DNA from: an uncultured Gammaproteobacteria bacterium
Lineage (GTDB): Bacteria > Patescibacteriota > Microgenomatia > Levybacterales > GWA1-39-11
Direction: 5' to 3'
DNA: 64,000 nucleotides
Assembly (NCBI GenBank): GCA_964450885.1
Contig: CAYVFE010000001.1
Location: 246,572 to 310,571 of the forward strand
The first letter of the stretch is position 1. Each line of letters starts with the position of its first letter. Below the pieces are notes generated by a model that was given only the letters and a program-made list of their open reading frames with translations, was not told the DNA's origin and ran no database searches. Shown piece after piece: positions 9,315-50,444 of this stretch. Made by a program: the position numbers and the translations under genes.

Positions 9315-11096
9315 ATGAATATCGAAAAGTTAAAAAATATAGAAGCAAAAATAATCGTTATCGGAAATCATCCTGCGATCATACAGTCTATTTTGGATTT
9401 TGATAATATTTCTGGCAAAAAATTCCCAAGCATCGTAGGAATAATTGCTACCGGCAGAAATTATCAAAGATTTTTTTATGGTAAAAAGGAAATCTTGATT
9501 CCGATTTTTAGTTCTGTAGAAAGGTTGCCAGGCAGTGTAAAAGAAAATGTAAATGTGTTTGTAAACGTTAGCTCCGGAAGAAGGGTTTTACAGTCATCGA
9601 TAGAGGCGATAGACAATCTACCGAATTTGGTTATCGGAACAATTTTTGCAGAAAACGTTCCCGAAAAACATGCGATAGATTTAGGCGAATTCGCGAAGAT
9701 AAAAAATATAGTTCTTATCGGTCCTGCTAGCGTGGGAATGGTTTTGCCGGAAGTATTTAAATTAGGTGCGATAGGAGGAGTAAATCTACCACAAATCGAA
9801 ACCTCGGGGATTTTAAATAAGGGTGGGATTGCAGTTCTTTCTGCATCTGGCGGGATGGTAAACGAAATAATAAATATAGTCGCTCAAAGTCATAACAGCA
9901 TCTCCTTTGCACTTTCATTTGGAGGCGATAGATTCCCATTGTTAGAACCTGTTGACGCCTTACTTGCTGCAGAACATGATGAACAAACCAAAGCTATAGT
10001 ATATTATGGAGAGCTTGGTGGTGAAGACGAATACAAGATCGCAGAACTTTTGAAATCCGGTGAGTTTTCTAAAAAGGTTATTTGTTATGTAGCTGGAAGC
10101 GTTTCGGATCTTTTTGACACTCCCCCACAATTCGGTCATGCGAAAGCTATGGCAGGGAGCAAAGAAGAAAGCGCAACAGCAAAAAGAAAAGCGCTTCGTG
10201 ATGCTGGGGCAGTCGTGCCGGATACTTTTTCGGAGTTTGTCGGAGCTATAAATTCGTTGGAAGACTATGGAAGTAGTAGAACTCATGATAAAATAGAAAA
10301 TATGGATGACAGACGCCACGCTCTTATCGCATCAACCATCTCAAAGGACGAAGATGGAGATGTTAAAGTTTTGGGAGAAGATTTGATAAGCTTTGCAAAG
10401 ACAAATTCGTTTGCAAAAATCGCCAGCTCCCTTTTTCTAGGGAAGAAAATAAGCTCAAGTGACACGGAAGAACTCGTCGATTTTATTCTAAAAGTAAGCG
10501 TTGATCATGGGCCATATGTTTCAGGTGCACTAAATACTATAGTGTCAGCTCGCGCTGGTAAAGACCTGGTTTCATCACTCTCATCAGGACTTCTTACCAT
10601 AGGCCCGAGATTCGGTGGAGCCTTGAATCAGGCTGCGGATAACTGGTTTGAAGGGGTACGTAGCGGGAAAGATGCGCACGATTTTGTTGAGGAATTTGCG
10701 CAAAAGAAAGAATATATCCAGGGAATCGGACATAAAAAATATAGGGTAGACATGCCCGACCCTAGAGTAGCAGAGTTAAAGCACTTCGTAGATAGACTCG
10801 ATAGTAAAAGATTCACAAATTTTGCTCTGGAGGTTGAAAAAATAACGACAGAAAAGAAAGGTAATCTTATTTTAAATGTCGATGGCATGATAGCGGCTGT
10901 GCTTCTGGATTATCTGTCAGAGAAAGAAGGATATAGCGATGACGAGTTAAGAAAATTGATCGATGCAGAATTTTTTAATGCACTATTTGTTCTCTCTAGA
11001 AGCGTGGGATTTATCGCACATTTTCTGGACCAAAAGAGGCTTGATGAAGGACTTCTTCGACTAAGCGAGGAAGATGTGGCTGATGCAAATATATAA
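9315..11096 (+). CDS. aclA: ATP-citrate lyase alpha subunit (CoA-binding + phospho-His ligase + citryl-CoA lyase domain)
   Basis: 593 aa. SCS-alpha-like phosphohistidine segment QFGHAKAMAG. C-terminal citrate-synthase-like domain with GIGHKKYRVDMPDPR and ALEVEKITTEKKGNLILNVDG...GFIAHFLDQKRL, which closely matches the eukaryotic/Chlorobium ACL C-terminus. Confidence 0.8.
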   Translation: MNIEKLKNIEAKIIVIGNHPAIIQSILDFDNISGKKFPSIVGIIATGRNYQRFFYGKKEILIPIFSSVERLPGSVKENVNVFVNVSSGRRVLQSSIEAIDNLPNLVIGTIFAENVPEKHAIDLGEFAKIKNIVLIGPASVGMVLPEVFKLGAIGGVNLPQIETSGILNKGGIAVLSASGGMVNEIINIVAQSHNSISFALSFGGDRFPLLEPVDALLAAEHDEQTKAIVYYGELGGEDEYKIAELLKSGEFSKKVICYVAGSVSDLFDTPPQFGHAKAMAGSKEESATAKRKALRDAGAVVPDTFSEFVGAINSLEDYGSSRTHDKIENMDDRRHALIASTISKDEDGDVKVLGEDLISFAKTNSFAKIASSLFLGKKISSSDTEELVDFILKVSVDHGPYVSGALNTIVSARAGKDLVSSLSSGLLTIGPRFGGALNQAADNWFEGVRSGKDAHDFVEEFAQKKEYIQGIGHKKYRVDMPDPRVAELKHFVDRLDSKRFTNFALEVEKITTEKKGNLILNVDGMIAAVLLDYLSEKEGYSDDELRKLIDAEFFNALFVLSRSVGFIAHFLDQKRLDEGLLRLSEEDVADANI

Positions 11097-20834: not shown

Positions 20835-20879
20835 GGCTTGAAAACGAAACTATAAGGATGTAAACTCAGCTTCATAGTA

Positions 20880-23876
20880 ATGAAATTGCTTAAGGCTTTA
20901 TTACTGCTCACCCTGCTTTCTTTTTTTATGTCTGTAAAGACACCTGTCGAAGCGGTAGGTTTTGAAAGAACAGAAATTGTTTCCGGCCTAACTGCTGCAG
21001 TAAAGTTAATCCATTTACCTGATGGAAGAATGTTGGTTGCAGAGAAAGCTGGTAAAGTTAGGGTCATAAAAGATGGACAGCTTCTTTCGGCCCCCATGTT
21101 GGACATTTCGGATCATGTTAATAATTATGTAGACAGAGGGCTTCTTTCCATAGCAATAGACCCTGATTTTGAGGAAAATTTTTACTTATATCTTCTCTAT
21201 ACGCATCAGGGCACGAACGATCCTGCTGATAAGAATAAGACGAATAGATTAGTCAGAGTTCAGCTCCCATCAGCAACTGCAGACGAAGCTGTTCCTAGCA
21301 TTAATCCCCCAGAGGCTATAATTTTAGGGTCAGTAGATGACCCATTCTGTGGGCCCGGATTAGACTGCATGCCCATAAATAGCTATTCTCATGCTATTGG
21401 AGATATAGTTTTTGATGAAGAGGAAAATATATTTTTATCTGTTGGAGATGGTTCCGAATATGATTTTGTTGATCCGCAAGCTTTGCGTGCTCAAAATCCC
21501 GATTGGCTACTTGGCAAAGTTTTGCATATAAATAGAGAGGGAGAAGGTCTAGATTCAAACCCTTATTATAATGGTGATCCGGATGCGCCCAGGTCTAAGG
21601 TTTACCAGATGGGTCTTAGGAATCCATTTAGGCTTACCTTGCACCCTGATTTCGGATTGTTTACAACAGACGTTGGGTGGTATTTGTGGGAAGAGGTAAA
21701 TCATGGAGGAGTCGGAGCAAATTTTGGGTGGCCTTGCTTTGAGGGGAATGATCCTACCACAGAGTATAGTACAAATCCTCAGATATTGGATTTTTGTCAA
21801 GATATGTACGATAACCCTACAGACAAAAAACCTTTATATGAGTATAGTCATGAAGGGGGAGGGGGAGCAGCAATCGGAGGAGCGTTTTATGATGGTACGG
21901 AATATCCTGAGGAATATCGTAATAATTTCTTTTTTGCAGACCATGATAAGAAATGGGTTAGAAGACTGAGCTTTACCTCTGAGGGAGAGTTCGAATCAGC
22001 TGAGAACTTTATGGCGGATGTTCAGGAGCCTGTTATGGTTTTTTCATATCCGGATAATGGCGATATAGGCTGGATTTCTATATGGTCCGGAAAAATTATC
22101 CGTGTGTCATATAATGAGAACAACAGGGCGCCGGTTGCAGTTGCTTCTTCTAATATAACTTCAGGGGCCGTGCCTTTGACTGTCGAATTTGACGGATCAT
22201 TATCTTCAGATCCAGATGAAGATGAGTTAACGTTTAATTGGGATTTTGGTGATGGCAGCAGTTCAGCAGAGGTGAATCCTGTTCATACATATAGTAGTCC
22301 GGGAACTATGAGTGTTACTTTAACGGTTTCAGATGGATTTAGTGAGGCTACGGATACTATTACTATTAATGTAGGAGATGAAGCGCCTGTAATTAGTATT
22401 ACTTCTCCAATCAAAGACACGAATTTTGTAGCTCCTGCAGCAATACAATATAGTGGAAGTGCGGTAGATACTTCAGGTAATCCTATTCCTGCAGAAAATG
22501 TAAGTTGGAAGTTGATAATTCATCACAATGATCACATCCACGTCGAATTTGATGGTGTTACTGGTTATGCTGGGTCAAAAACACTTCCATATCATGCAGA
22601 TAATTCATTTTATGAGCTAGAATTTACTGCCACTGATCCTAATAACGGCTTAACTTCTAAAAAAACTGTAAATTTTTACGTTCTTCCTGAAGGATCTGGC
22701 TCGGAAATTGTAATATATGCGGCAGGGACGTTAGCTCATGATTCTTATCCAACGATGGAGTTATTAGTAGATGATGTTGTCGTTGCTAGTTATGAAAATG
22801 TTATGGGAGATCCTCAAGAGAGAATGTTTGAACAGTTTGCCTATAATCACACGTCTAATGTTAAGGCTGAGCAGATAAAGGTCAGATTTACGAATGATTT
22901 TTACAGTCAAGCTGAGGGACAAGATAGAAATCTCATGGTTGATAAAGTGATAGTTGACGGTATAACCTACGAAACCGAAGATCAGAATGTTTTCTCAGTA
23001 GGATCGTGGTCTGCAGATAACGACTGTGGTCCAGGCTATAAACGCAGTGAAGAGTTAGCATGTAACGGATACTTTTCTTATGCAGGAGGTAGCCTGATTG
23101 AGGTATTTGCTGCAGGTACTCCAGCTGGAGGAGTTTATCCAAATGCTCAACTTGTCATAAATAATGTGGTGGTTGCGACATCTAATAATATCCAAGGAGA
23201 TATCGAGAATAGAGATTTTGAAAGAATTGCATATAGATATCCCATAAAGCTTACCGAGAGTGATAAGATCCAAGTCAAATTTACAAATGACTTGAACGAA
23301 AATGGCGAAGACAGGAATTTAATAGTTGATAAAATTAGAGTTGATGGGATAGATTATGAGACAGAGAGTTCTAGTGTATTTTCTTTTGGCTCCTGGTCAG
23401 CAGCTAATAGTTGTGGGCCAGGGTACAAATTAAGTGAAACACTTGCCTGCAATGGATATTTTGAATATACATTCTCAAATCCACAAGGATCACAAATTGA
23501 CATCTATGCTGCTGGGACACCTGCAGTTGGTGTTTATCCAAACATCGAGCTTCTTATTGATGATGTGGTGGTAAAAACATTTTTTGGAGTAGGTTCTACC
23601 TTCGGTCCAGGGTTCTTTGAGACGCTGAAATATACTCATAGAGATACGGTTTTACCTTCACAAATAAAGGTACGTTTCATAAATGACTATTACGATGCGT
23701 TAACTGGAGATAATAGGGATGCATTTATTGATAGGATAAGCATTGATGGAGTTGATTATCAAAGCGAAGACCCATCAGTTTATTCGGAAGGTTCCTGGTC
23801 AGTAGGTAATGGTTGTGGTGGAGGATATAAAGCTTCTGAAATGCTTTCTTGCAATAATTCCTACTTTCAATACTAG
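20880..23876 (+). CDS. Large secreted/surface protein: SGDH-type (glucose/sorbosone dehydrogenase-like) beta-propeller + PKD domain + three tandem ~135-aa carbohydrate-binding-like repeats
   Basis: Signal peptide MKLLKALLLLTLLSFFMSV. The propeller carries HAIGDIVFDEEENIFLSVGDGS, matching the H.GG..FGPDG..Y.S.GD pattern. The PKD block is TFNWDFGDGSS...HTYSSPGTMSVTLTVSDG. Three repeats each show YAAGT..YP...L..DVVV....IKVRFTNDxY...DRNL.VD.I.VDGI.YE.E..VFS.GSWS..N.CGPGYK.SE.LACNGYF.Y. Confidence 0.6.
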   Translation: MKLLKALLLLTLLSFFMSVKTPVEAVGFERTEIVSGLTAAVKLIHLPDGRMLVAEKAGKVRVIKDGQLLSAPMLDISDHVNNYVDRGLLSIAIDPDFEENFYLYLLYTHQGTNDPADKNKTNRLVRVQLPSATADEAVPSINPPEAIILGSVDDPFCGPGLDCMPINSYSHAIGDIVFDEEENIFLSVGDGSEYDFVDPQALRAQNPDWLLGKVLHINREGEGLDSNPYYNGDPDAPRSKVYQMGLRNPFRLTLHPDFGLFTTDVGWYLWEEVNHGGVGANFGWPCFEGNDPTTEYSTNPQILDFCQDMYDNPTDKKPLYEYSHEGGGGAAIGGAFYDGTEYPEEYRNNFFFADHDKKWVRRLSFTSEGEFESAENFMADVQEPVMVFSYPDNGDIGWISIWSGKIIRVSYNENNRAPVAVASSNITSGAVPLTVEFDGSLSSDPDEDELTFNWDFGDGSSSAEVNPVHTYSSPGTMSVTLTVSDGFSEATDTITINVGDEAPVISITSPIKDTNFVAPAAIQYSGSAVDTSGNPIPAENVSWKLIIHHNDHIHVEFDGVTGYAGSKTLPYHADNSFYELEFTATDPNNGLTSKKTVNFYVLPEGSGSEIVIYAAGTLAHDSYPTMELLVDDVVVASYENVMGDPQERMFEQFAYNHTSNVKAEQIKVRFTNDFYSQAEGQDRNLMVDKVIVDGITYETEDQNVFSVGSWSADNDCGPGYKRSEELACNGYFSYAGGSLIEVFAAGTPAGGVYPNAQLVINNVVVATSNNIQGDIENRDFERIAYRYPIKLTESDKIQVKFTNDLNENGEDRNLIVDKIRVDGIDYETESSSVFSFGSWSAANSCGPGYKLSETLACNGYFEYTFSNPQGSQIDIYAAGTPAVGVYPNIELLIDDVVVKTFFGVGSTFGPGFFETLKYTHRDTVLPSQIKVRFINDYYDALTGDNRDAFIDRISIDGVDYQSEDPSVYSEGSWSVGNGCGGGYKASEMLSCNNSYFQY

Positions 23877-23889
23877 ATTTTTTCCACGA

Positions 23890-23967
23890 AAAAAGAGCGG
23901 AGGTGCTTTATCAGAAGAACTCTGACAAAGGTTTGATCCTGAATGGACCAAACTTCCGCTCTTTTCC
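23890..23967 (-). terminator. Compound rho-independent terminator for the minus-strand GT2-GH gene
   Basis: On the minus strand, AAAAGAGCGGA pairs with UCCGCUCUUUU around an inner GGUUUGAUCC/GGACCAAAC hairpin, followed by a U-run (plus-strand A-run at 23889-23894). Confidence 0.4.
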
Positions 23968-23984
23968 AGTTGTGCAGTTAGCTC

Positions 23985-26675
23985 TTAGCGTTCTTTTAGT
24001 TCGAAGTACGGATTGCTGATTCCGTTCATGAACGCTTCGAGTTTTACCCCCGTTAACCTCCAGTCGATTACGACGTTAGGCCGAGGGTGCTGCGCGTTGT
24101 AGTAGACGAGACTTACGAGCATCGGATAATTCTGCACCGACGCAAGCATTTTCGCTACCCAATCCGCTTCCAGCGGGAGATTCTCAAGTGAGACTCCCAC
24201 CTCAGGGATGATGATAGGTTTGCCATAGCTGGCAAACCCTGGGTACATCGACGCCATCAGTTCGTCGAAGCTCAGGTATCCACCCTTCTGCCACACGTAT
24301 GTGGCAAATACGGTGAATCCCACGAAGTCGACGTAGTCGTCGCCAGGGTAGTACACAGTGTAATTCGGGATGTAGCCCGCGGGGCTCCATAAGAAGCGTG
24401 CATTCGGAGCACTCTCCTTAATGATCCCGTACACGTGTCGCCAAGCTGGCGCATAAAGCTCCGGTTCGGTGTCCCATGGGAATGAGCCGTTAAGGTCCAT
24501 CTCGTGAGCAAACCGAATGATGATCGGAGATCCGCCGTCATACCTGCCGATCAGGTTACCCCACGCCCGGATGTAGTCGTCGTACTTGCCGTCGACAATA
24601 TCCTGCAGGGAAACTCCCTCAGATCCATCTGGCGACCAGATCCATGGTTCCCATGTGATCAGGGAGATCTGGTTCTGCTCTGCTGCCGTCAGTATCTGCG
24701 TGTCGAGGTAGTCCATGGTGTCCGGATTCCAGTCTGCAAAGACCATGTTGATCTTGCTGATGGAGGACAGGGCTTGATCCGGATCCCAGGCTCCTATCGC
24801 CACTCCAGAAAATTCCTGTTCGACGAATCTCGCAGAAACTGTAGGAAGTGGTGTCGGTGTTGGGGTCGGAGTAGGCGTTGGGGTAGGCGTTGCCCTTGGT
24901 GGCGTTCTGGTAGGGACAGGAGTTGAAGTATTGGCATCGATTTGAGAGGGCGTTGCTGCCCGCTGCAGATCTGGTGCCTCAGTTATAACTACCATTCCCC
25001 CATCTGAGAAAGTGCGGGCTATCGGCGACGATTGAGGTTGTATTAGTGCGATTGCTGTAGCTGATGATGCGATAGCAACAGCAGCAACCCCAAAGTACGC
25101 GGCTTTTCGTCGATACGCCACCAGCGTTGGACGAGACCGAAGCAGGTGCTTCTGGGAGCTTATGACCACCGCAAGTTGTGTCGCGATGGTAAAGGCCGCC
25201 CAGAAACGGAGCTGCGGCGCCTCACCGTTGCCGGTCATGAAGCTCGCTGCGATTCCGCTCAGGGACAGGATGATGAGAAATCCATGCATGCGGAATGCAG
25301 CAAGGGAGTCTTTTTGCACCTGTGTACCTTTTGCGGTGACGACGTACTGGAGCTTCCGATAGAAGGCGACCAGAAGGAAGGCCCTGAAGTATATTGGAAG
25401 TGCTCCTAGCGTAAGGAACATCCCTTTCAGTCCAAGTCCCTTCTCTCGCTCCGGGTCGAGGTAGAACCTCTGACACCATCGCTCGATAAGCACCGAGATT
25501 AGGAAGGGTGGCATCGCATGGTAGGCCCACTGCCAGATGTCCATAGCTCCCGCCGACACTCCGAAGAGTAGGTAGAGAGAGGTGAGGATGACAGAGAGTG
25601 CCATGGTGACGCCTGCTAGGTAGTACGTCTGGACGAAGAAATACCCCAGTCGTCTCTTCCAGTTGAACTTGAGAAGGAGACGGGGAGAGTCGTCACGTAC
25701 GATCTCGAAAATCCCGTAGGACCAACGAGTTTGTTGGTTAAGGTATTCTTCCCATGAGGAAGGGCCTTCTCCGATTGCGATGATCTCTGGGACGTAGATT
25801 CCTTTCCAGCCTTTGGATAGCATCCTCATGCCGGTCAGGTGGTCTTCGACGATCTTTGATGCATATCCACCCGCGTCTTGCAGAGCGGATGGACGATAGA
25901 CGTGATTGGTGCCGATGAAAAGCGGCATCCCGAGACCATTGAGTCCCTGTTGGAGGGGACCATGGAAGCAGAATGACTGCTCGGCTGCACCACGTGCGAT
26001 CCAGTTTTCCTGGTTGCCGTAGATCTGAGGACCGACAACGAATCCCACCTGGCGATCCCGAAAGTACCCGAGGGTCCTATCGAGATAATCCTTGGTGGGC
26101 ACGTGGTCCATGTCCATCTGAGCTACGAAGTCGTAGGCATCTTCGTATGCATCGCGCCATGCGTTGTGGTTGCCCGCCTTGGTCTTGGCCTTGAACGGGC
26201 CCGATGGCTGGTTGTATCGTCCTATCCCCTTTCGGGAAAAGTGACGAACACCCAGTCTTTGGCACATGTCCTTGACGATGACGTCATCTCCCTCGTCGAG
26301 AACCCACGTGTCGTGAGGATAGTCAACTTCCGTCATGGCTTTGAGCGTTACCTCTAGCATGTCGTAAGGTTCTTTTCCCGGAACGAAGCACGTAAGCATC
26401 GCGACTCGGAGTCCTGGACGCGGTTTCTGGTAGGGTGTCCTTTTCATGTGGGACACGATGTACCAGAAGCCCAGGCGTTGCACGAGACCGTGCCAGATAA
26501 CGCCTGTGAGGGCAAGGTAGAAGACGATGTCGAGCCAGTCGAATCCTCCCTGTCCCCAGTTCGATGGGATGTGGTTGGGATTAAACCACCAAACCGCATA
26601 GCGGATGATGGCAAAGATGGCCAGCGTCACCACGAGGGTGAAGAAGACCTTCTCTTTCCGGGACATCACGTTCAT
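23985..26675 (-). CDS. Fusion protein: membrane-embedded processive family-2 glycosyltransferase (cellulose-synthase/BcsA-like) - Pro/Thr linker - C-terminal GH26-like (clan GH-A) glycoside hydrolase domain
   Basis: 896 aa. GT2 motifs LDEGDD, KAGNHN (cf. BcsA KAGNLN), AQMDMDH, VEDHLTGMRM (TED-like) and QQTRW, plus multiple TM helices. Linker TPVPTRTPPRATPTPTPTPTPTPTPLPT. The C-terminal hydrolase domain carries IIIRFAHEMDL, an R-x-x-H-E acid/base motif of GH26 type. The gene is visibly GC-rich relative to its flanks. Confidence 0.7.
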   Translation of the reverse strand: MNVMSRKEKVFFTLVVTLAIFAIIRYAVWWFNPNHIPSNWGQGGFDWLDIVFYLALTGVIWHGLVQRLGFWYIVSHMKRTPYQKPRPGLRVAMLTCFVPGKEPYDMLEVTLKAMTEVDYPHDTWVLDEGDDVIVKDMCQRLGVRHFSRKGIGRYNQPSGPFKAKTKAGNHNAWRDAYEDAYDFVAQMDMDHVPTKDYLDRTLGYFRDRQVGFVVGPQIYGNQENWIARGAAEQSFCFHGPLQQGLNGLGMPLFIGTNHVYRPSALQDAGGYASKIVEDHLTGMRMLSKGWKGIYVPEIIAIGEGPSSWEEYLNQQTRWSYGIFEIVRDDSPRLLLKFNWKRRLGYFFVQTYYLAGVTMALSVILTSLYLLFGVSAGAMDIWQWAYHAMPPFLISVLIERWCQRFYLDPEREKGLGLKGMFLTLGALPIYFRAFLLVAFYRKLQYVVTAKGTQVQKDSLAAFRMHGFLIILSLSGIAASFMTGNGEAPQLRFWAAFTIATQLAVVISSQKHLLRSRPTLVAYRRKAAYFGVAAVAIASSATAIALIQPQSSPIARTFSDGGMVVITEAPDLQRAATPSQIDANTSTPVPTRTPPRATPTPTPTPTPTPTPLPTVSARFVEQEFSGVAIGAWDPDQALSSISKINMVFADWNPDTMDYLDTQILTAAEQNQISLITWEPWIWSPDGSEGVSLQDIVDGKYDDYIRAWGNLIGRYDGGSPIIIRFAHEMDLNGSFPWDTEPELYAPAWRHVYGIIKESAPNARFLWSPAGYIPNYTVYYPGDDYVDFVGFTVFATYVWQKGGYLSFDELMASMYPGFASYGKPIIIPEVGVSLENLPLEADWVAKMLASVQNYPMLVSLVYYNAQHPRPNVVIDWRLTGVKLEAFMNGISNPYFELKER

Positions 26676-27193
26676 CTGAATCTCCCTGTGGGATCGGTGA
26701 AGGCTTTGATGGTGGCAAGCAGAACGGGAGGAGTCCTCGCCTTCTGCTGGCTGTTGCTCCGGTTAGGAAGCATTAAGGTGAGCCACCATGCGGTCGGATC
26801 GATCGTTGGGCAGAAGTTTGTCATCATGTTGATGAAGACAAGGACAGTGCCCCAAGTTGCCGAGAGCATTCTTGTTTTCTCCTAGGTCAATCGTTGTTGG
26901 GATGGTCGTGACGGGTATTTCTTGCTTTGCAGCTTGTGTACCCTGGTATCATTGTCAATGAGCGCAGTCTTTCGACGCACAACTGGTTTCTTGGCTAACA
27001 AAAAAACCCACGCAAAACTTTCGTTCATTTGCAGGCAGTCTGTGTCAAGATATTGTTGTCACCTTGGTTTCAAGAATCCGCTCCAGCTAAGGAATGGCTT
27101 ATCGACCTAGAGTGAACAACAACTGCGGAGATTATAAGGGTAAAGAGCAATTAGAGTCAATGGCTTAGAGTTTTATCTATTAAGATAAATTAC

Positions 27194-28408
27194 TCATATT
27201 TTGGAAAAGAATGGGATTGAGAATTTTACTTTTTTAATTACTTTTCGGGTTTCAAAAAGAGATGTTCCGAAAATTATTTTTCTATCGTCATATAGTAGAT
27301 AAATTTTCTTCGCTTTTTCTTTGAGATTTTCATCTTCGAAAAATAGTGAGGACTGATGCATTCTATCCTCCTCGAAGTTATAGATAGTTGCTCCTGTTGC
27401 GCGGTAAAGATTACTCGGGTCATAAATCTTCTCAAATCCCTGCCGTATTTGTCTTCGGATCATAATCGGATAAGACGTCTTATCATTTATCCTTATCTCG
27501 ATTCCCTGGTAGGTAAACTTTTGTGTCTTTAGATATATAAAAATTCTGCCTACACTGTAGTTATACTTTCGAGCTTTCAAAAAAGCACTCTCTACATGAT
27601 GAAGAATTCTTGCCCAGAGCACGCTTTTTTCGTTTGTCGCAGGGGTAACTGTGTGGGATTTGGTTATAGATTTATATTCTCTTTTTACGCTTGGATCAAC
27701 CTTAAAAAGAGATGTGCCATTTAACTCGAGCCAGATTTCATAAAAAGGTTTTGGATAGAATTTTTTAATAAAATTTTCTGGACGGATAGCATAGTCATAT
27801 GCTGTGTTGATGTTAAACCTTCTTAATTTTGGTGCGCTCCTGTATCCTATTCCCCAGACCTTTGAGATATCTATCTGTTTTAAAAGTTCGACCGTTTTTT
27901 CTTTAGGAATTATAGTAAGTCCAGAGGGCTTGTTGAGATTTGCGGCAATTTTTGCAAGAGATTTAGTAGTCGCGATCCCGATAGAAACAGTTATCCCTAA
28001 TGAGTTTTCTATTTCATCTTTCATAGCCCGACCGATTTCGTAATACGACATCTTTAGAGGTCTTGTGAGTCCTTTCAGGTCTGCAAACCCTTCATCTATA
28101 GAATAGATTTCGACAGCGGGCGAGTATTTTTTCATGATGGAAAACATTTTGTTTGAGAATAGGTGATAGAGCTTGTAGTCGGAATGCGTGATTATGACTG
28201 TTGGAAATTGTTTTTTTATTTCCCAGCATGGCATGCCTCTTTCTACGCCTAGTGCTTTTGCTTCATAGGACACTGCTGTCGCAATCCCTCGCTCCATGCC
28301 GCTTACGACAGGTTTTCCCTGAAGGTGAGGATTTACTGCCTGGGTTACTGATGCAAAAAATGCATCTGCATCGAGATGTAGGATTGCTTCAGGCCATGAG
28401 GTGGACAT
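27194..28408 (-). CDS. dinB: Y-family DNA polymerase IV
   Basis: ILHLDADAFFASV catalytic motif at the N-terminus. 404 aa. Lies downstream of lexA on the same strand. Confidence 0.85.
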   Translation of the reverse strand: MSTSWPEAILHLDADAFFASVTQAVNPHLQGKPVVSGMERGIATAVSYEAKALGVERGMPCWEIKKQFPTVIITHSDYKLYHLFSNKMFSIMKKYSPAVEIYSIDEGFADLKGLTRPLKMSYYEIGRAMKDEIENSLGITVSIGIATTKSLAKIAANLNKPSGLTIIPKEKTVELLKQIDISKVWGIGYRSAPKLRRFNINTAYDYAIRPENFIKKFYPKPFYEIWLELNGTSLFKVDPSVKREYKSITKSHTVTPATNEKSVLWARILHHVESAFLKARKYNYSVGRIFIYLKTQKFTYQGIEIRINDKTSYPIMIRRQIRQGFEKIYDPSNLYRATGATIYNFEEDRMHQSSLFFEDENLKEKAKKIYLLYDDRKIIFGTSLFETRKVIKKVKFSIPFFSKI

Positions 28409-28471
28409 AATACATTTTGAAAAATCTTTTTAATAAATTCAGTATTTTTTTACTTCTCTTTCTGATCATAG

Positions 28472-29032
28472 TCAATATTTGCGCATCACACTTTTTACGA
28501 TCCCAAAAACTTTAAGCTCCTCTACAGGGATAAATTCAGGGTAGTTAGGATTCGCGGCACGCAGGATACTTATCCCATTTTTGCGGTCCAGAATCTTTAG
28601 TGTCCATTCGTTATCTATGAGTGCGAGGACTATGTCTCCTGCTTTTGCCTGCGCGGTCTTTTCTATGACTACCATGTCTCCGTCAAATATTCCCACGCCT
28701 TCCATAGAGTCACCAGAGACTTTTAGCAGAAATGAACTGTTAGGTTTGTCGATAAGGTATTCGTCAAGTGAGAGAAAATTTAGCTCCTCCTCAGCGCCTG
28801 TCGGAAATCCTGCTTTGATATTCCCCAGAATCGGCACCTGAAAAAAAAAGTTGGTCGGGGAGAGTTTGTTATTTAGCTTTTGTAGATAGTTTTGTTCTAT
28901 AAGGTTATTTACGATTTTGTGAATCGCATTCTTTGAAGAAAGATTAAATATCGAAAGCATTTCAGAATAGGAAGGTATACGTTTGTTCTTCTTATAAAAT
29001 GATCGAAGTGATTCGAGATATTCAGATTTCAT
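28472..29032 (-). CDS. lexA: LexA repressor (S24 peptidase with N-terminal wHTH)
   Basis: C-terminal S24 autoprotease (GDSMEGVGIFDGDMVVI ... Lys). Start re-set to MKSEYLESL because the upstream ATG at 29065 lies inside the operator palindrome. Confidence 0.8.
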   Translation of the reverse strand: MKSEYLESLRSFYKKNKRIPSYSEMLSIFNLSSKNAIHKIVNNLIEQNYLQKLNNKLSPTNFFFQVPILGNIKAGFPTGAEEELNFLSLDEYLIDKPNSSFLLKVSGDSMEGVGIFDGDMVVIEKTAQAKAGDIVLALIDNEWTLKILDRKNGISILRAANPNYPEFIPVEELKVFGIVKSVMRKY

Positions 29033-29049
29033 ACCGCCAGAATAATATA

Positions 29050-29065
29050 GTGAACAATCGTTCAC
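29050..29065 (+). promoter_or_regulatory. LexA operator (Cheo/SOS box, GAAC-N4-GTTC)
   Basis: Perfect palindrome GTGAACAATCGTTCAC about 18 nt upstream of the corrected lexA start. Confidence 0.6.
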
Positions 29066-40551: not shown

Positions 40552-41004
40552 ATGTACGACTATAACCAAGATAGAGAAAAATACGAGGAAAAGATAGTCC
40601 AGATAAATAGGGTATCTAAAAAGACTAAAGGCGGAAACACCATGAGGTTTTCGGTGCTGGTTGTTGTTGGAGACAAAAAGGGGAAAGTTGGAGTAGGGCT
40701 AGGAAAATCGTCAGATATAGCATCAGCTATCCAAAAGGCAGTGTCTTATGCAAAAAGACACTTTATAGATGTGCCGATAGTAAATGATACTATTCCTCAC
40801 GATATTTATCTAAAGCTGGGAGCATCGAAGATACTCTTGAAGCCTGCGCCTCAGGGAAGCGGTCTTATCGCAGGAGGGGCAGTCAGAAGCGTTGTGGAGG
40901 CTGCCGGAATCAGGAATATTTCGTCAAAGATACTGGGAACAAACAATAAGGCAAGCAATGTTCATGCAACATTTGCGGCCCTAGAGAAATTGAATAATAA
41001 CTAA
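40552..41004 (+). CDS. rpsE: 30S ribosomal protein S5
   Basis: RVSKKTKGGNTMRFSVLVVVGD motif. Confidence 0.9.
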   Translation: MYDYNQDREKYEEKIVQINRVSKKTKGGNTMRFSVLVVVGDKKGKVGVGLGKSSDIASAIQKAVSYAKRHFIDVPIVNDTIPHDIYLKLGASKILLKPAPQGSGLIAGGAVRSVVEAAGIRNISSKILGTNNKASNVHATFAALEKLNNN

Positions 41005-41005
41005 T

Positions 41006-41449
41006 ATGACAAAACTAGATAATCTACAGAAAATAACGAAAAAGCCTTTAAGAAGATTAGGTCAAGGACACGGTTCCAATAGAGGAAAGACTGCAGGGAG
41101 AGGTATGAAGGGACAAAAGGCACGAACAAAAATTTCCCTTTCATTTGAAGGTGGAGCATTGCCTTTGATCAAGAGGTTGCCTCTACTTCGTGGTAAAGGA
41201 CGAAATTATACACTCAAAAAAGATTTTTACGGAGTAAATGTTAGATCTCTTGAGGCTCTCCCAGCGAAAACTATAGTTGATGAAAAGAGTCTACTAAAGT
41301 ACAATATTATTTCTAAAGATAATATGAAAAGAAGTGCTGGTATAAAAATATTGGGAAATGGAGAGCTTTCCAAGTCACTTACAGTAAAACTTCAAGTTTC
41401 AAAAGGAGCGAGAGAAAAAATCGAGTCTGCAGGTGGATCTGTAGAATAG
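41006..41449 (+). CDS. rplO: 50S ribosomal protein L15
   Basis: GQGHGSNRGKTAGRGMKGQ. Follows rpsE directly, with no L30 gene between them. Confidence 0.9.
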   Translation: MTKLDNLQKITKKPLRRLGQGHGSNRGKTAGRGMKGQKARTKISLSFEGGALPLIKRLPLLRGKGRNYTLKKDFYGVNVRSLEALPAKTIVDEKSLLKYNIISKDNMKRSAGIKILGNGELSKSLTVKLQVSKGAREKIESAGGSVE

Positions 41450-41456
41450 AAATATC

Positions 41457-42743
41457 ATGGGGAAAGCACTTGACGTTATCAAAAAAATCTTTAAAGACCC
41501 CGAACTCAGAAAAAAAATCCTAATAGTTTTAGGTCTTCTTTTAGTATTTAGATTTCTGGCACATATTCCGGTTGCAGGAGTAAATATAAATCAGCTTAGG
41601 TCTCTTTTTGACCAGAATCAGTTCTTGGGACTTTTGGATATTTTCTCAGGAGGAACTTTGTCTAACTTCTCTATTCTTGCAGTTGGAATCGGACCATACA
41701 TCTATGCCTCTATCGTGATGCAGCTTTCAGCAAAAATTTATCCGAAACTAGAAGAGCTTCAAAAAGAGGGTGAATATGGAAAAAAGAAAATAACACAATA
41801 TACCAGATACGCTACTGTTCCTTTGGGTATTCTTCAATCCATAGGTATGTACACTTTGCTTCGCAGTCAGGGGCTTATTGGAAATCTATCACCGATTGAT
41901 CTTGTTGCATTTATCGCGACCATGCTTGCCGGAACGATGCTTATTATGTGGATTGGAGAGATAATTTCTGAGCAGAATATCGGGAATGGAATCTCTTTGA
42001 TAATTTTTGCAGGTATTGTCGGGCAGCTTCCAGTTGCTGCTTTTCAGGTTATAACTACCATAAATCCGGAGCAGGTTATAAATATGATGATGTTAACGCT
42101 TATCGGAATACTCGTTATCGCGGCTATAGTTTTCGTCAACGAGTCTATCAGAAAAGTCCCTATTATGTATGCAAAAAGAATTAGGGGAGCAAATTCTCAA
42201 GCAGCACAGTCCACGCATTTACCATTGAGACTTAATTCTGCAGGTGTTATTCCTATTATCTTTGCGATTTCACTTGTGCTTCTTCCATCTCTTTTGGCAA
42301 ACTATTTTGTAGCATCCAGCAACGAGCAGCTGGCAGCGCTCGGTACATGGATAATAGCTAACTTTGGGGTAACAAGCGTGCTTTATAACGTTGTATATTT
42401 CGGGCTTATATTCGGATTCACTTATTTTTATACCGCTATAATCTTTAATCCAAAAGACATCGCCGAGAATGTGCAGCAAAGCGGTGGATTTATACCGGGG
42501 ATCCGCCCTGGCAAACAGACAGAAAAGTATCTTAACTTTATTATTACCAGAATTACCTTATTTGGAGCATTATTTTTAGGAATTGTTGCGATTCTTCCGA
42601 ATGTACTACAGGCATATACTGGTATTCAGACCCTAGTTATCGGTGGAACTAGTATTCTGATTGTCGTGACAGTTGTTATAGAGACTGTAAAGGTTTTGCA
42701 AGTTCAACTCGTTAATAGAAGCTACGACAAATTTCTCCAATAA
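41457..42743 (+). CDS. secY: Preprotein translocase subunit SecY
   Basis: 428 aa, 10 TM helices, conserved SecY plug/hinge motifs. Confidence 0.9.
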   Translation: MGKALDVIKKIFKDPELRKKILIVLGLLLVFRFLAHIPVAGVNINQLRSLFDQNQFLGLLDIFSGGTLSNFSILAVGIGPYIYASIVMQLSAKIYPKLEELQKEGEYGKKKITQYTRYATVPLGILQSIGMYTLLRSQGLIGNLSPIDLVAFIATMLAGTMLIMWIGEIISEQNIGNGISLIIFAGIVGQLPVAAFQVITTINPEQVINMMMLTLIGILVIAAIVFVNESIRKVPIMYAKRIRGANSQAAQSTHLPLRLNSAGVIPIIFAISLVLLPSLLANYFVASSNEQLAALGTWIIANFGVTSVLYNVVYFGLIFGFTYFYTAIIFNPKDIAENVQQSGGFIPGIRPGKQTEKYLNFIITRITLFGALFLGIVAILPNVLQAYTGIQTLVIGGTSILIVVTVVIETVKVLQVQLVNRSYDKFLQ

Positions 42744-50373: not shown

Positions 50374-50444
50374 CGGGGTGTAGTTTAAAGGTAGAATGCG
50401 CGGCTGGGGGTCGTGTGGCTGGAGTTCGATTCTCCGCACCCCGA
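50374..50444 (+). tRNA. tRNA-Pro (anticodon GGG)
   Basis: Hand-folded cloverleaf. Acceptor CGGGGUG/CACCCCG. Anticodon stem CGCGG/UCGUG with loop CU-GGG-GG. T-arm UGGAG-UUCGAUU-CUCCG. Discriminator A. No encoded CCA. Confidence 0.7.

Follow-up and report, generated by a model that had tools for sequence, protein, structure and literature searches.

A putative one-gene exopolysaccharide module, a GT2 synthase fused to a GH26 glycanase, on a GC-rich island in a Microgenomates-type genome

The 64,000-nucleotide stretch of metagenome-assembled DNA analysed here (contig CAYVFE010000001.1, referred to below as the window) contains a GC-rich island whose only large gene encodes a protein of 896 residues, in which a processive glycosyltransferase of family 2 (GT2) is joined to a glycoside hydrolase of family 26 (GH26). 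Our data give good support to a recent horizontal transfer that brought this one gene into a hypervariable surface-glycan slot. Judged from sequence motifs and structural models, the gene is probably a working one-gene exopolysaccharide module, which would polymerise a chain, export it and process it with a tethered retaining GH26 enzyme. The observations underlying this reading are the foreign composition of the island, an empty site in sister genomes, an intact open reading frame (ORF), the two recognisable folds with their catalytic residues, and a synthase-GH26 partnership that recurs across phyla.

The island and the slot that holds it

Measured in 1-kb windows, the GC content is 0.539-0.546 across positions 24001-27000 and 0.346-0.429 in all other windows of the 64-kb stretch. 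The 896-residue gene has a GC content of 0.546 compared with 0.392 for the 50 other genes of the window (z = 5.3), and its GC content at third codon positions (GC3) is 0.638 compared with a mean of 0.331 (standard deviation 0.035, maximum 0.404; z = 8.8). Compared with the remainder of the stretch, 23985-27130 has a tetranucleotide L1 distance of 0.562, whereas all other windows of 3146 bp give 0.173 ± 0.016 with a maximum of 0.220 (z = 24.8). The foreign GC-rich island proposed in a preliminary description of the window, made from the letters alone, was therefore borne out by calculation (GC content 0.54-0.55 against 0.39), the profile being non-uniform and 24001-27000 standing out from every other kilobase. 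The low-coordinate edge of the island is abrupt and coincides with the 3' end of the gene (about 23990-24000), and the high-coordinate edge is gradual, the GC content going from 0.55 at about 26750 to 0.43 at about 27100 and 0.26-0.33 past 27150 (both at 100-nt resolution).

As judged from three features, the host is a bacterium of Microgenomates type within the candidate phyla radiation (CPR), since the named relatives of its DinB protein belong to Levybacteria (59%) and Roizmanbacteria (52-53%), since its contig measures 588 kb, and since its ribosomal operon has no room for protein L30 (S5 ends at 41004 and the next gene of ribosomal-protein size starts at 41006, directly before SecY; window 40552-41457). 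Absence of L30 is a hallmark of the CPR, and the CPR-like host suggested earlier is in line with these observations.

Sister contigs, taken from relatives with DinB 70-82% identical to that of the window, share a backbone in the order ribosomal-protein operon, EF-Tu, beta-lactamase-like, LexA-like, DinB, slot, GH18, LytR_C and ABC transporter. The slot is empty in L056, L057 and L058, where only 2-4 nt separate DinB from GH18 (11206-11217 in L056). Synteny of the window with its sisters breaks at about 27200 and about 20835, and the cargo in between consists of a GSDH/PKD/3xCBM60 gene and the GC-rich island. In L054 and L055 the slot holds a 959-residue protein, a GT2 (GC 0.48) and a 141-residue ORF (GC 0.60) in a genome of 0.395 GC (L054 11215-16030), and in L059 (11349-21221) it holds an epimerase, GtrA, UbiA, a GT2 and a giant PA14/GSDH/PKD protein. 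Foreign surface-glycan genes seem to have landed repeatedly at this site between DinB and GH18. Since the slot is empty in sisters, synteny is broken and the composition is foreign, the island is regarded as recent and unameliorated, and the horizontal acquisition claimed at the outset finds its support in the deviant composition combined with the empty syntenic site. The gene is also present on contigs in three different length classes, and a contig of an independent Logan assembly (L001, from SRR8449813) is 100% identical to the window over 17,001 bp across both junctions.

The slot is bordered in all relatives examined by a conserved gene pair (27194-29065, minus strand), one member of which encodes an S24 peptidase of LexA-like type and the other a DinB/IMS polymerase. 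The other cargo gene of the window (20880-23876, plus strand, convergent with the island gene) encodes a secreted-looking protein of 998 residues with a beta-propeller of the glucose/sorbosone-dehydrogenase (GSDH) type, to which a PKD domain and three modules of CBM60 are added. Its GC content of 0.397 is host-like, and it is missing from the empty-slot relatives, the slot of L059 having a PA14/GSDH/PKD giant.

The nearest relative in both halves of the protein (P0001 on locus L002, GCA_030602025.1) is 55% identical overall and resides in a genome of 0.47 GC, the tyrosyl-tRNA synthetase of which has named relatives only at about 48-50%, from Armatimonadota and Patescibacteria. In crude neighbour-joining trees, which carry no support values, the window protein and this relative fall nearer a Saccharimonadales-containing clade when residues 1-545 are used and nearer Chloroflexota/Actinomycetota-type sequences when residues 625-896 are used, a discordance that gives a hint of swapped domains among family members. 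The tetranucleotide signature of the island is closest, weakly, to that of a Chisholmbacteria locus. The high-GC donor among Actinobacteria or Chloroflexi that had been suggested is not established by a nearest relative of 55% identity and 0.47 GC, and the donor may as plausibly have been a moderately GC-rich CPR bacterium as a member of the Chloroflexota. A phage or plasmid vehicle was considered and set aside, as the phage matches were irrelevant, IMG/VR gave four matches that cover the synthase region only, none extending to the GH26 part, and the plasmid matches pointed to the rhizobial aps operon described below.

The two halves of the fused protein

The gene, at the position and on the strand first described, is a single intact ORF with neither a frameshift nor a stop between its GT2 and GH26 halves. 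A GGGAG Shine-Dalgarno-like motif lies 6 nt 5' of its ATG, and homologues begin at the position equivalent to Met4. The layout is given in Table 1. An AlphaFold2 (AF2) model built on 23 family members has a mean predicted local distance difference test score (pLDDT) of 83, with values below 50 for the disordered segment of residues 544-607.

The N-terminal half matches GT2 families of Pfam over residues 98-385 (PF13632, residues 184-385, E = 4e-20; Cellulose_synt, E = 2.5e-8). D127, KAGN at 166-169, D188xD190, the TED-like pair E277-D278 and Q314-Q315-x-R317-W318 are invariant in a 23-member family alignment. Among sequences of solved structures, residues 80-480 match BcsA (E = 7e-28), and in Foldseek the AF2 model aligns with BcsA 4p00 over 552 columns (E = 3e-25). 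The channel region of the model comprises transmembrane (TM) helices 339-371 and 380-404, an interface helix at 416-437, and TM helices 458-481 and 487-507. By its motifs and by its modelled channel alike, the synthase half is predicted to be a processive membrane GT2 with a BcsA-like fold.

The C-terminal half exceeds the cutoff of Pfam Glyco_hydro_26 (PF02156; 32 bits against 20.2) with a match covering residues 715-799 only. Residues 641-875 match the GH26 lichenase domain CtLic26A from endoglucanase H of C. thermocellum among PDB sequences (E = 4e-13), the matches to GH26 mannanases and beta-1,3-xylanases being far weaker. The same preference is seen in Foldseek, where the target TM-score is 0.78-0.81 for CtLic26A (root-mean-square deviation 3.0 Å) and about 0.53 for Cellvibrio Man26A. 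E725 (in RFAHEM; codon 24501-24503) and E825 (in IIPEVG; codon 24201-24203) are invariant in 23 relatives and align with E109 and E222 of CtLic26A, which we take to be its acid/base and nucleophile. From sequence and model, then, the C-terminal half is assigned to GH26 (clan GH-A), with a predicted (beta/alpha)8 fold and both catalytic glutamates kept. The preliminary description had read the protein as a BcsA-like GT2, a Pro/Thr linker and a GH26-type hydrolase with an RFAHE acid/base motif, and this reading is confirmed on each count: the architecture by Pfam, PDB sequence matches, AF2 and Foldseek, the motif by the alignment of E725 with E109 and its invariance, and the family by the Glyco_hydro_26 score.

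In BcsA, four TM helices follow the GT domain and the C-terminus is cytoplasmic. The 896-residue protein has a fifth helix after the GT domain, found at 516-545 by both hydropathy and AF2, and just before it are five Lys/Arg and no acidic residue. With this additional helix and the basic residues preceding it, the linker and the GH26 domain should lie outside, and we infer that the domain faces the outer side of the membrane, a topology on which the preliminary description had asked for a prediction. Members of the family that have only the GT2 part end just before the equivalent of the extra helix, and standalone or split GH26 partners, including that of S. meliloti, begin with a basic stretch followed by a hydrophobic signal or anchor; both features agree with an outward GH26. 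A third point in agreement with it is that some relatives have extracytoplasmic wall-binding modules C-terminal to GH26: P0001 has a LysM (21.4 bits, above the cutoff of 20.9), and in a Nitrolancea protein the match to SH3_3 falls below cutoff. We propose that the extra helix is the former signal-anchor of the hydrolase and carries the C-terminal half outside. The simplest and most likely origin of the fusion is a read-through event by which a synthase gene became joined to the gene for a signal-anchored GH26 lying directly downstream.

Table 1. Features of the slot, the island and the fused gene (window coordinates)
Feature	Position	Strand	Basis or remark
Hypervariable slot between GH18 stop and DinB stop	20835..27193		empty in L056/L057/L058
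Inverted repeat of 14 nt, 93% complementary, 47-nt loop	23891..23965		AT-rich DNA between two convergent genes
GT2 synthase-GH26 glycanase gene, 896 residues	23985..26675	-	one ORF
Predicted GH26 domain, residues 625-896	23988..24803	-	compact alpha/beta domain in AF2 model
Disordered Pro/Thr-rich linker, residues 546-624	24804..25040	-	(TP)n repeat at 24850-24885
Extra TM helix, residues 516-545	25041..25130	-	hydropathy, AF2; 5 K/R just before
Predicted BcsA-like membrane channel region, residues 339-507	25155..25661	-	AF2 model; Foldseek to BcsA
Predicted cytoplasmic GT2 catalytic domain, residues 80-335	25671..26438	-	invariant motifs in 23-member alignment
N-terminal TM helices 1-2, residues 6-74	26454..26660	-	AF2 helices 6-30 and 46-74; hydropathy
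65-residue ORF within leader	26672..26869	-	overlaps start of the 896-residue gene by 4 nt
GC-elevated (0.43-0.57) non-coding leader	26676..27130	-	upstream of the 896-residue gene
Sigma-70-like promoter match TTGACT-18-TATAAT, 11/12	27131..27160	-	consensus match, island/host junction

The GC-elevated leader was probably transferred together with the gene. The promoter match at its far end would give a leader of about 450 nt, for which no Rfam family was found at E<=1; the segment 26660-27125 (minus strand) folds slightly better than shuffled sequences (z = -2.1; 0/100 shuffles equally stable). A riboswitch or other known RNA was dropped as a candidate on account of the empty Rfam search and the just mildly stable fold. 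The idea that the approximately 450 bp of GC-rich upstream DNA are a relic of the standalone GH26 gene of relatives was likewise rejected, there being no similarity at the protein level. The 65-residue ORF exists and overlaps the start of the large gene as first reported, but on inspection its sequence is not markedly hydrophobic as had been stated. Its proposed status as a co-transferred gene is unsupported, a homologue being absent from every related locus, and we treat it as spurious and probably not a gene. The inverted repeat on the other side of the gene is a possible terminator.

Elsewhere in the window, a 593-residue protein (9315-11096, plus strand), which is also found at the end of L058, combines CoA-ligase/succinyl-CoA-ligase-like domains with a citrate-synthase C-terminal domain. 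Such an architecture, resembling ATP-citrate lyase or a citryl-CoA-type enzyme, is unexpected for a reduced CPR genome.

Distribution of the architecture and weighing of the readings

Dozens of full-length relatives with both Pfam domains, 36-55% identical to the window protein, were found by a word-indexed search, with Chloroflexi, Levybacteria, Nocardioides and Nitrolancea among the source names; some of them bear the JGI annotation 'cellulose synthase...-like glycosyltransferase/beta-mannanase'. When 1.84 billion cluster representatives were searched exhaustively with a profile, 27,637 hits were obtained; of the best 150 clusters at 50% identity, 62 match collinearly over both halves, and many are 1,200-1,390 residues long. 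When one genome per species was scanned, the carriers were mostly Patescibacteria/CPR (Levy-, Roizman-, Gottesman-, Davies-, Chisholm- and Curtissbacteria, and Saccharimonadales) and Chloroflexota. In other carriers the GC and GC3 of the gene follow those of its flanks (0.411 and 0.390, 0.579 and 0.607, 0.678 and 0.660, for example), whereas the window copy, at 0.546 against 0.39, is a clear compositional outlier. The GH26 partner is a separate downstream gene in L023 and L043, and many loci have an extra standalone GH26 gene immediately upstream of the synthase. The occurrence of GH26 fused to, split from and upstream of the synthase marks the pairing as an old functional partnership that has sometimes become a fusion. 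The locus of Gottesmanbacteria RBG_16_52_11 (L009 10835-13578) was not counted as a split pair, as the 4-nt overlap of its two parts falls at a masked run of N; its gene is probably fused.

Two further arrangements were seen in the family. A Chloroflexi metagenome-assembled genome (L003 9056-18289) has five GH26-like copies clustered about a single fused synthase: besides the fused copy itself, one lies upstream and three lie downstream on the opposite strand. Four proteins of 1066-1216 residues (P0039, P0052, P0057 and P0060, one of them named Saccharibacteria) have two complete, tandem GT2 synthase domains and no GH26.

Text searches of a limited body of literature surfaced no paper on GT2-GH26 fusions, and a survey of synthase operons describes BcsZ-BcsC and BcsA-BcsB fusions and no synthase-hydrolase fusion (PMC7112194). 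The fusion had been called unusual and undescribed, which overstates its rarity, given that 62 of the best 150 clusters are fused and that the gene has native composition in many CPR bacteria and Chloroflexota.

In the mechanism that we favour for the one-gene module, the BcsA-like processive GT2 would act in the cytoplasm to polymerise sugar supplied as a nucleotide-sugar, and would thread the growing chain through its own membrane channel. The extra TM helix and the flexible Pro/Thr linker of about 80 residues would hold the retaining GH26 endoglycanase on the outer face, where the tethered enzyme may cut, trim or release the nascent polymer, and so take the role that separate enzymes of the BcsZ, CcsZ and ApsE type have elsewhere. 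Both the trimming role and expression of the gene are inferred.

Several points weigh against this reading. The promoter at the island edge is a consensus match only, and the outward topology of the GH26 half is deduced from sequence and model. The arrangement between domains is undefined in AF2 (predicted TM-score 0.59, disordered linker). The synthase scores only 138 bits against the CelA equivalog TIGR03030, the cutoff of which is 699. With R. leguminosarum queries, tblastn found no gene for UDP-xylose synthase, 4-epimerase, DUF995 or the CuxR regulator within the window, and none next to the fused genes of CPR bacteria and Chloroflexota, so that the sugar polymerised here is not readable from gene context. 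As regards the transfer, no integrase or transposase, tRNA target or flanking direct repeats were found at the slot (the sole tRNA of the window is at 50374), and L001 may stem from the same reads as the window assembly.

The tethered GH26 could instead be mainly a transglycosylase that cyclises, branches or wall-attaches the chain, like GH17 in cyclic glucan synthases of the NdvB type, an explanation that we consider unlikely. GH26 enzymes are retaining, which makes transglycosylation chemically possible; we know of no GH26 transglycosylase of this type. A fused GH17-GT2 precedent has been proposed to cut its own product and close it into a ring (PMC10237404), and some relatives of the window protein carry added LysM or SH3-like cell-wall-binding modules, but the closest solved structure to the GH26 domain is that of a hydrolytic lichenase, and in the AF2 model the domain sits C-terminally on a long floppy linker and is not packed against the channel. 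It is decidedly improbable that the GH26 domain degrades polysaccharide of a host or the environment, such as lichenan or mannan, with the synthase as a mere membrane anchor and the two functions independent. In its favour, CPR bacteria rely on external substrates, and a GH18 gene lies next to the slot, which also contains the gene for the secreted-looking GSDH/PKD/3xCBM60 protein. However, the pairing of synthase and GH26 is kept as fused, split and adjacent genes in CPR bacteria, Chloroflexota, Actinomycetota and rhizobial biosynthetic operons, and such conservation marks GH26 as the cognate hydrolase of a biosynthetic system.

The gene might also be a recently gained passenger, silent or non-functional and awaiting loss. 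Its wholly unameliorated composition (GC3 0.64 against 0.33) implies codon usage that suits the host poorly, and accessory genes did not arrive with it. We nevertheless find this quite unlikely, as the ORF of 896 codons is intact, every family-invariant residue is kept, and a Shine-Dalgarno-like motif and a near-consensus promoter match are present. An abrupt change of composition in metagenome-assembled sequence may finally raise the suspicion of an assembly chimera or a binning contaminant. This is very improbable indeed for an internal insert of 3.1 kb with junctions that coincide with gene ends, where host synteny picks up again on both sides of the slot as in the sisters and where L001 reproduces both junctions within 17 kb of identical sequence.

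CPR bacteria have minimal genomes and a lifestyle of attachment to other cells, to which their surface glycans are likely to be central; these glycans are almost unstudied. The locus is a clean case in this respect, with a dated insertion whose site is empty in sisters, unameliorated composition, a one-gene module and a slot whose cargo differs in each relative. It is tempting to speculate, although only tentatively, that GT2-GH26 fusions form a widespread class of exopolysaccharide machines, not yet studied biochemically, in which one polypeptide both makes and trims the polymer, that they serve as portable cassettes for re-dressing the surfaces of episymbiotic CPR bacteria, and that the window has captured such a swap soon after transfer. 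If so, fusions may be favoured where a periplasm to retain a free hydrolase is assumed to be absent (CPR, Chloroflexota and Actinomycetota), the polymer may be one not yet described, and attachment to the host would be altered.

Comparison with studied synthase-hydrolase systems

The cellulose-type systems BcsA/BcsZ (GH8) and CcsA/CcsZ (GH5) have in common with the window protein a processive GT2 with a channel, the D, DxD, TED and QxxRW motifs, interface helices and a dedicated extracytoplasmic endoglycanase. Their differences from it are considerable. Identity between BcsA and the window synthase is just about 20%, the C-terminal PilZ domain of BcsA was not found in the window protein by Pfam, and the partner BcsB is not encoded by the island, the neighbours of which are DinB and the GSDH/PKD/CBM60 protein. 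BcsZ and CcsZ are separate proteins of GH8 and GH5, whereas the hydrolase of the window is a covalently joined GH26. The window synthase also scores just 100 bits against a cutoff of 992 for NF008558, in addition to its low TIGR03030 score, and it is not a BcsA orthologue.

A covalent link between a synthase and a glycoside hydrolase is known from the NdvB and 'Orphan' cyclic beta-1,3-glucan synthases of pseudomonads, in which a periplasmic GH17 and a BcsA-like GT2 are connected through TM helices in one polypeptide (PMC10237404). In these proteins GH17 is N-terminal and proposed to be a glucanosyltransferase/cyclase, whereas in the window protein GH26 is C-terminal on a long disordered linker. 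For the hydrolase half itself, CtLic26A (PDB 2bv9, 2v3g and 2cit) is the best match in both structure and sequence, with 24-26% identity and a target TM-score of about 0.8. CtLic26A is a soluble, degradative enzyme of the cellulosome, and at 25% identity its substrate specificity is not transferable to the window domain. The GH26 half most resembles this beta-1,3-1,4-glucanase, and the closest studied synthase makes an arabinose-containing polysaccharide.

This synthase belongs to a rhizobial system that came up in a tblastn search of plasmids, where two adjacent genes on megaplasmids of Rhizobium and Sinorhizobium matched 82-85% of the 896-residue protein at about 30% identity. The R. leguminosarum locus encodes a divergent AraC regulator, UDP-glucuronate decarboxylase, a GalE-type epimerase, a GT2, a glycosyl hydrolase and DUF995, and the order on pSymB of S. 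meliloti 1021 is AraC, UDP-xylose synthase, epimerase, GT2 (651 residues), DUF995-like, GH26 (325 residues) and DUF995-like. A pSymB operon for an arabinose-containing polysaccharide (APS), uxs1-uxe-apsS-apsH1-apsE-apsH2, is reported to be controlled by CuxR and cyclic di-GMP (PMC7902896). Going by gene order, the GT2 would correspond to ApsS and the GH26 to ApsE. The APS synthase is 31% identical to the window protein over residues 3-427 of the latter (E = 2e-56), which is closer than BcsA, and the signal-peptide-bearing hydrolase, a GH26 by Pfam, is 31.5% identical over residues 593-874 (E = 1e-30). Of the studied systems, the rhizobial pair is the nearest homologue by sequence for synthase and hydrolase alike. 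The APS system keeps synthase and hydrolase on separate genes and co-encodes UDP-xylose synthase, a 4-epimerase, two DUF995 genes and the AraC-type cyclic di-GMP regulator CuxR, while the window has a single polypeptide. The split aps homologue (PMC7902896) and the GH17-GT2 fusions (PMC10237404) also speak against the suggestion that the gene is undescribed in kind. Glycanases associated with synthases have been described before, as has a GH17-GT2 fusion, and the gene is accordingly a fused version of the known logic of synthase plus glycanase and not a new principle. For a large fused family that has no characterised member, the homology to rhizobial aps offers a cultured and genetically tractable entry to the polymer and to the role of GH26.

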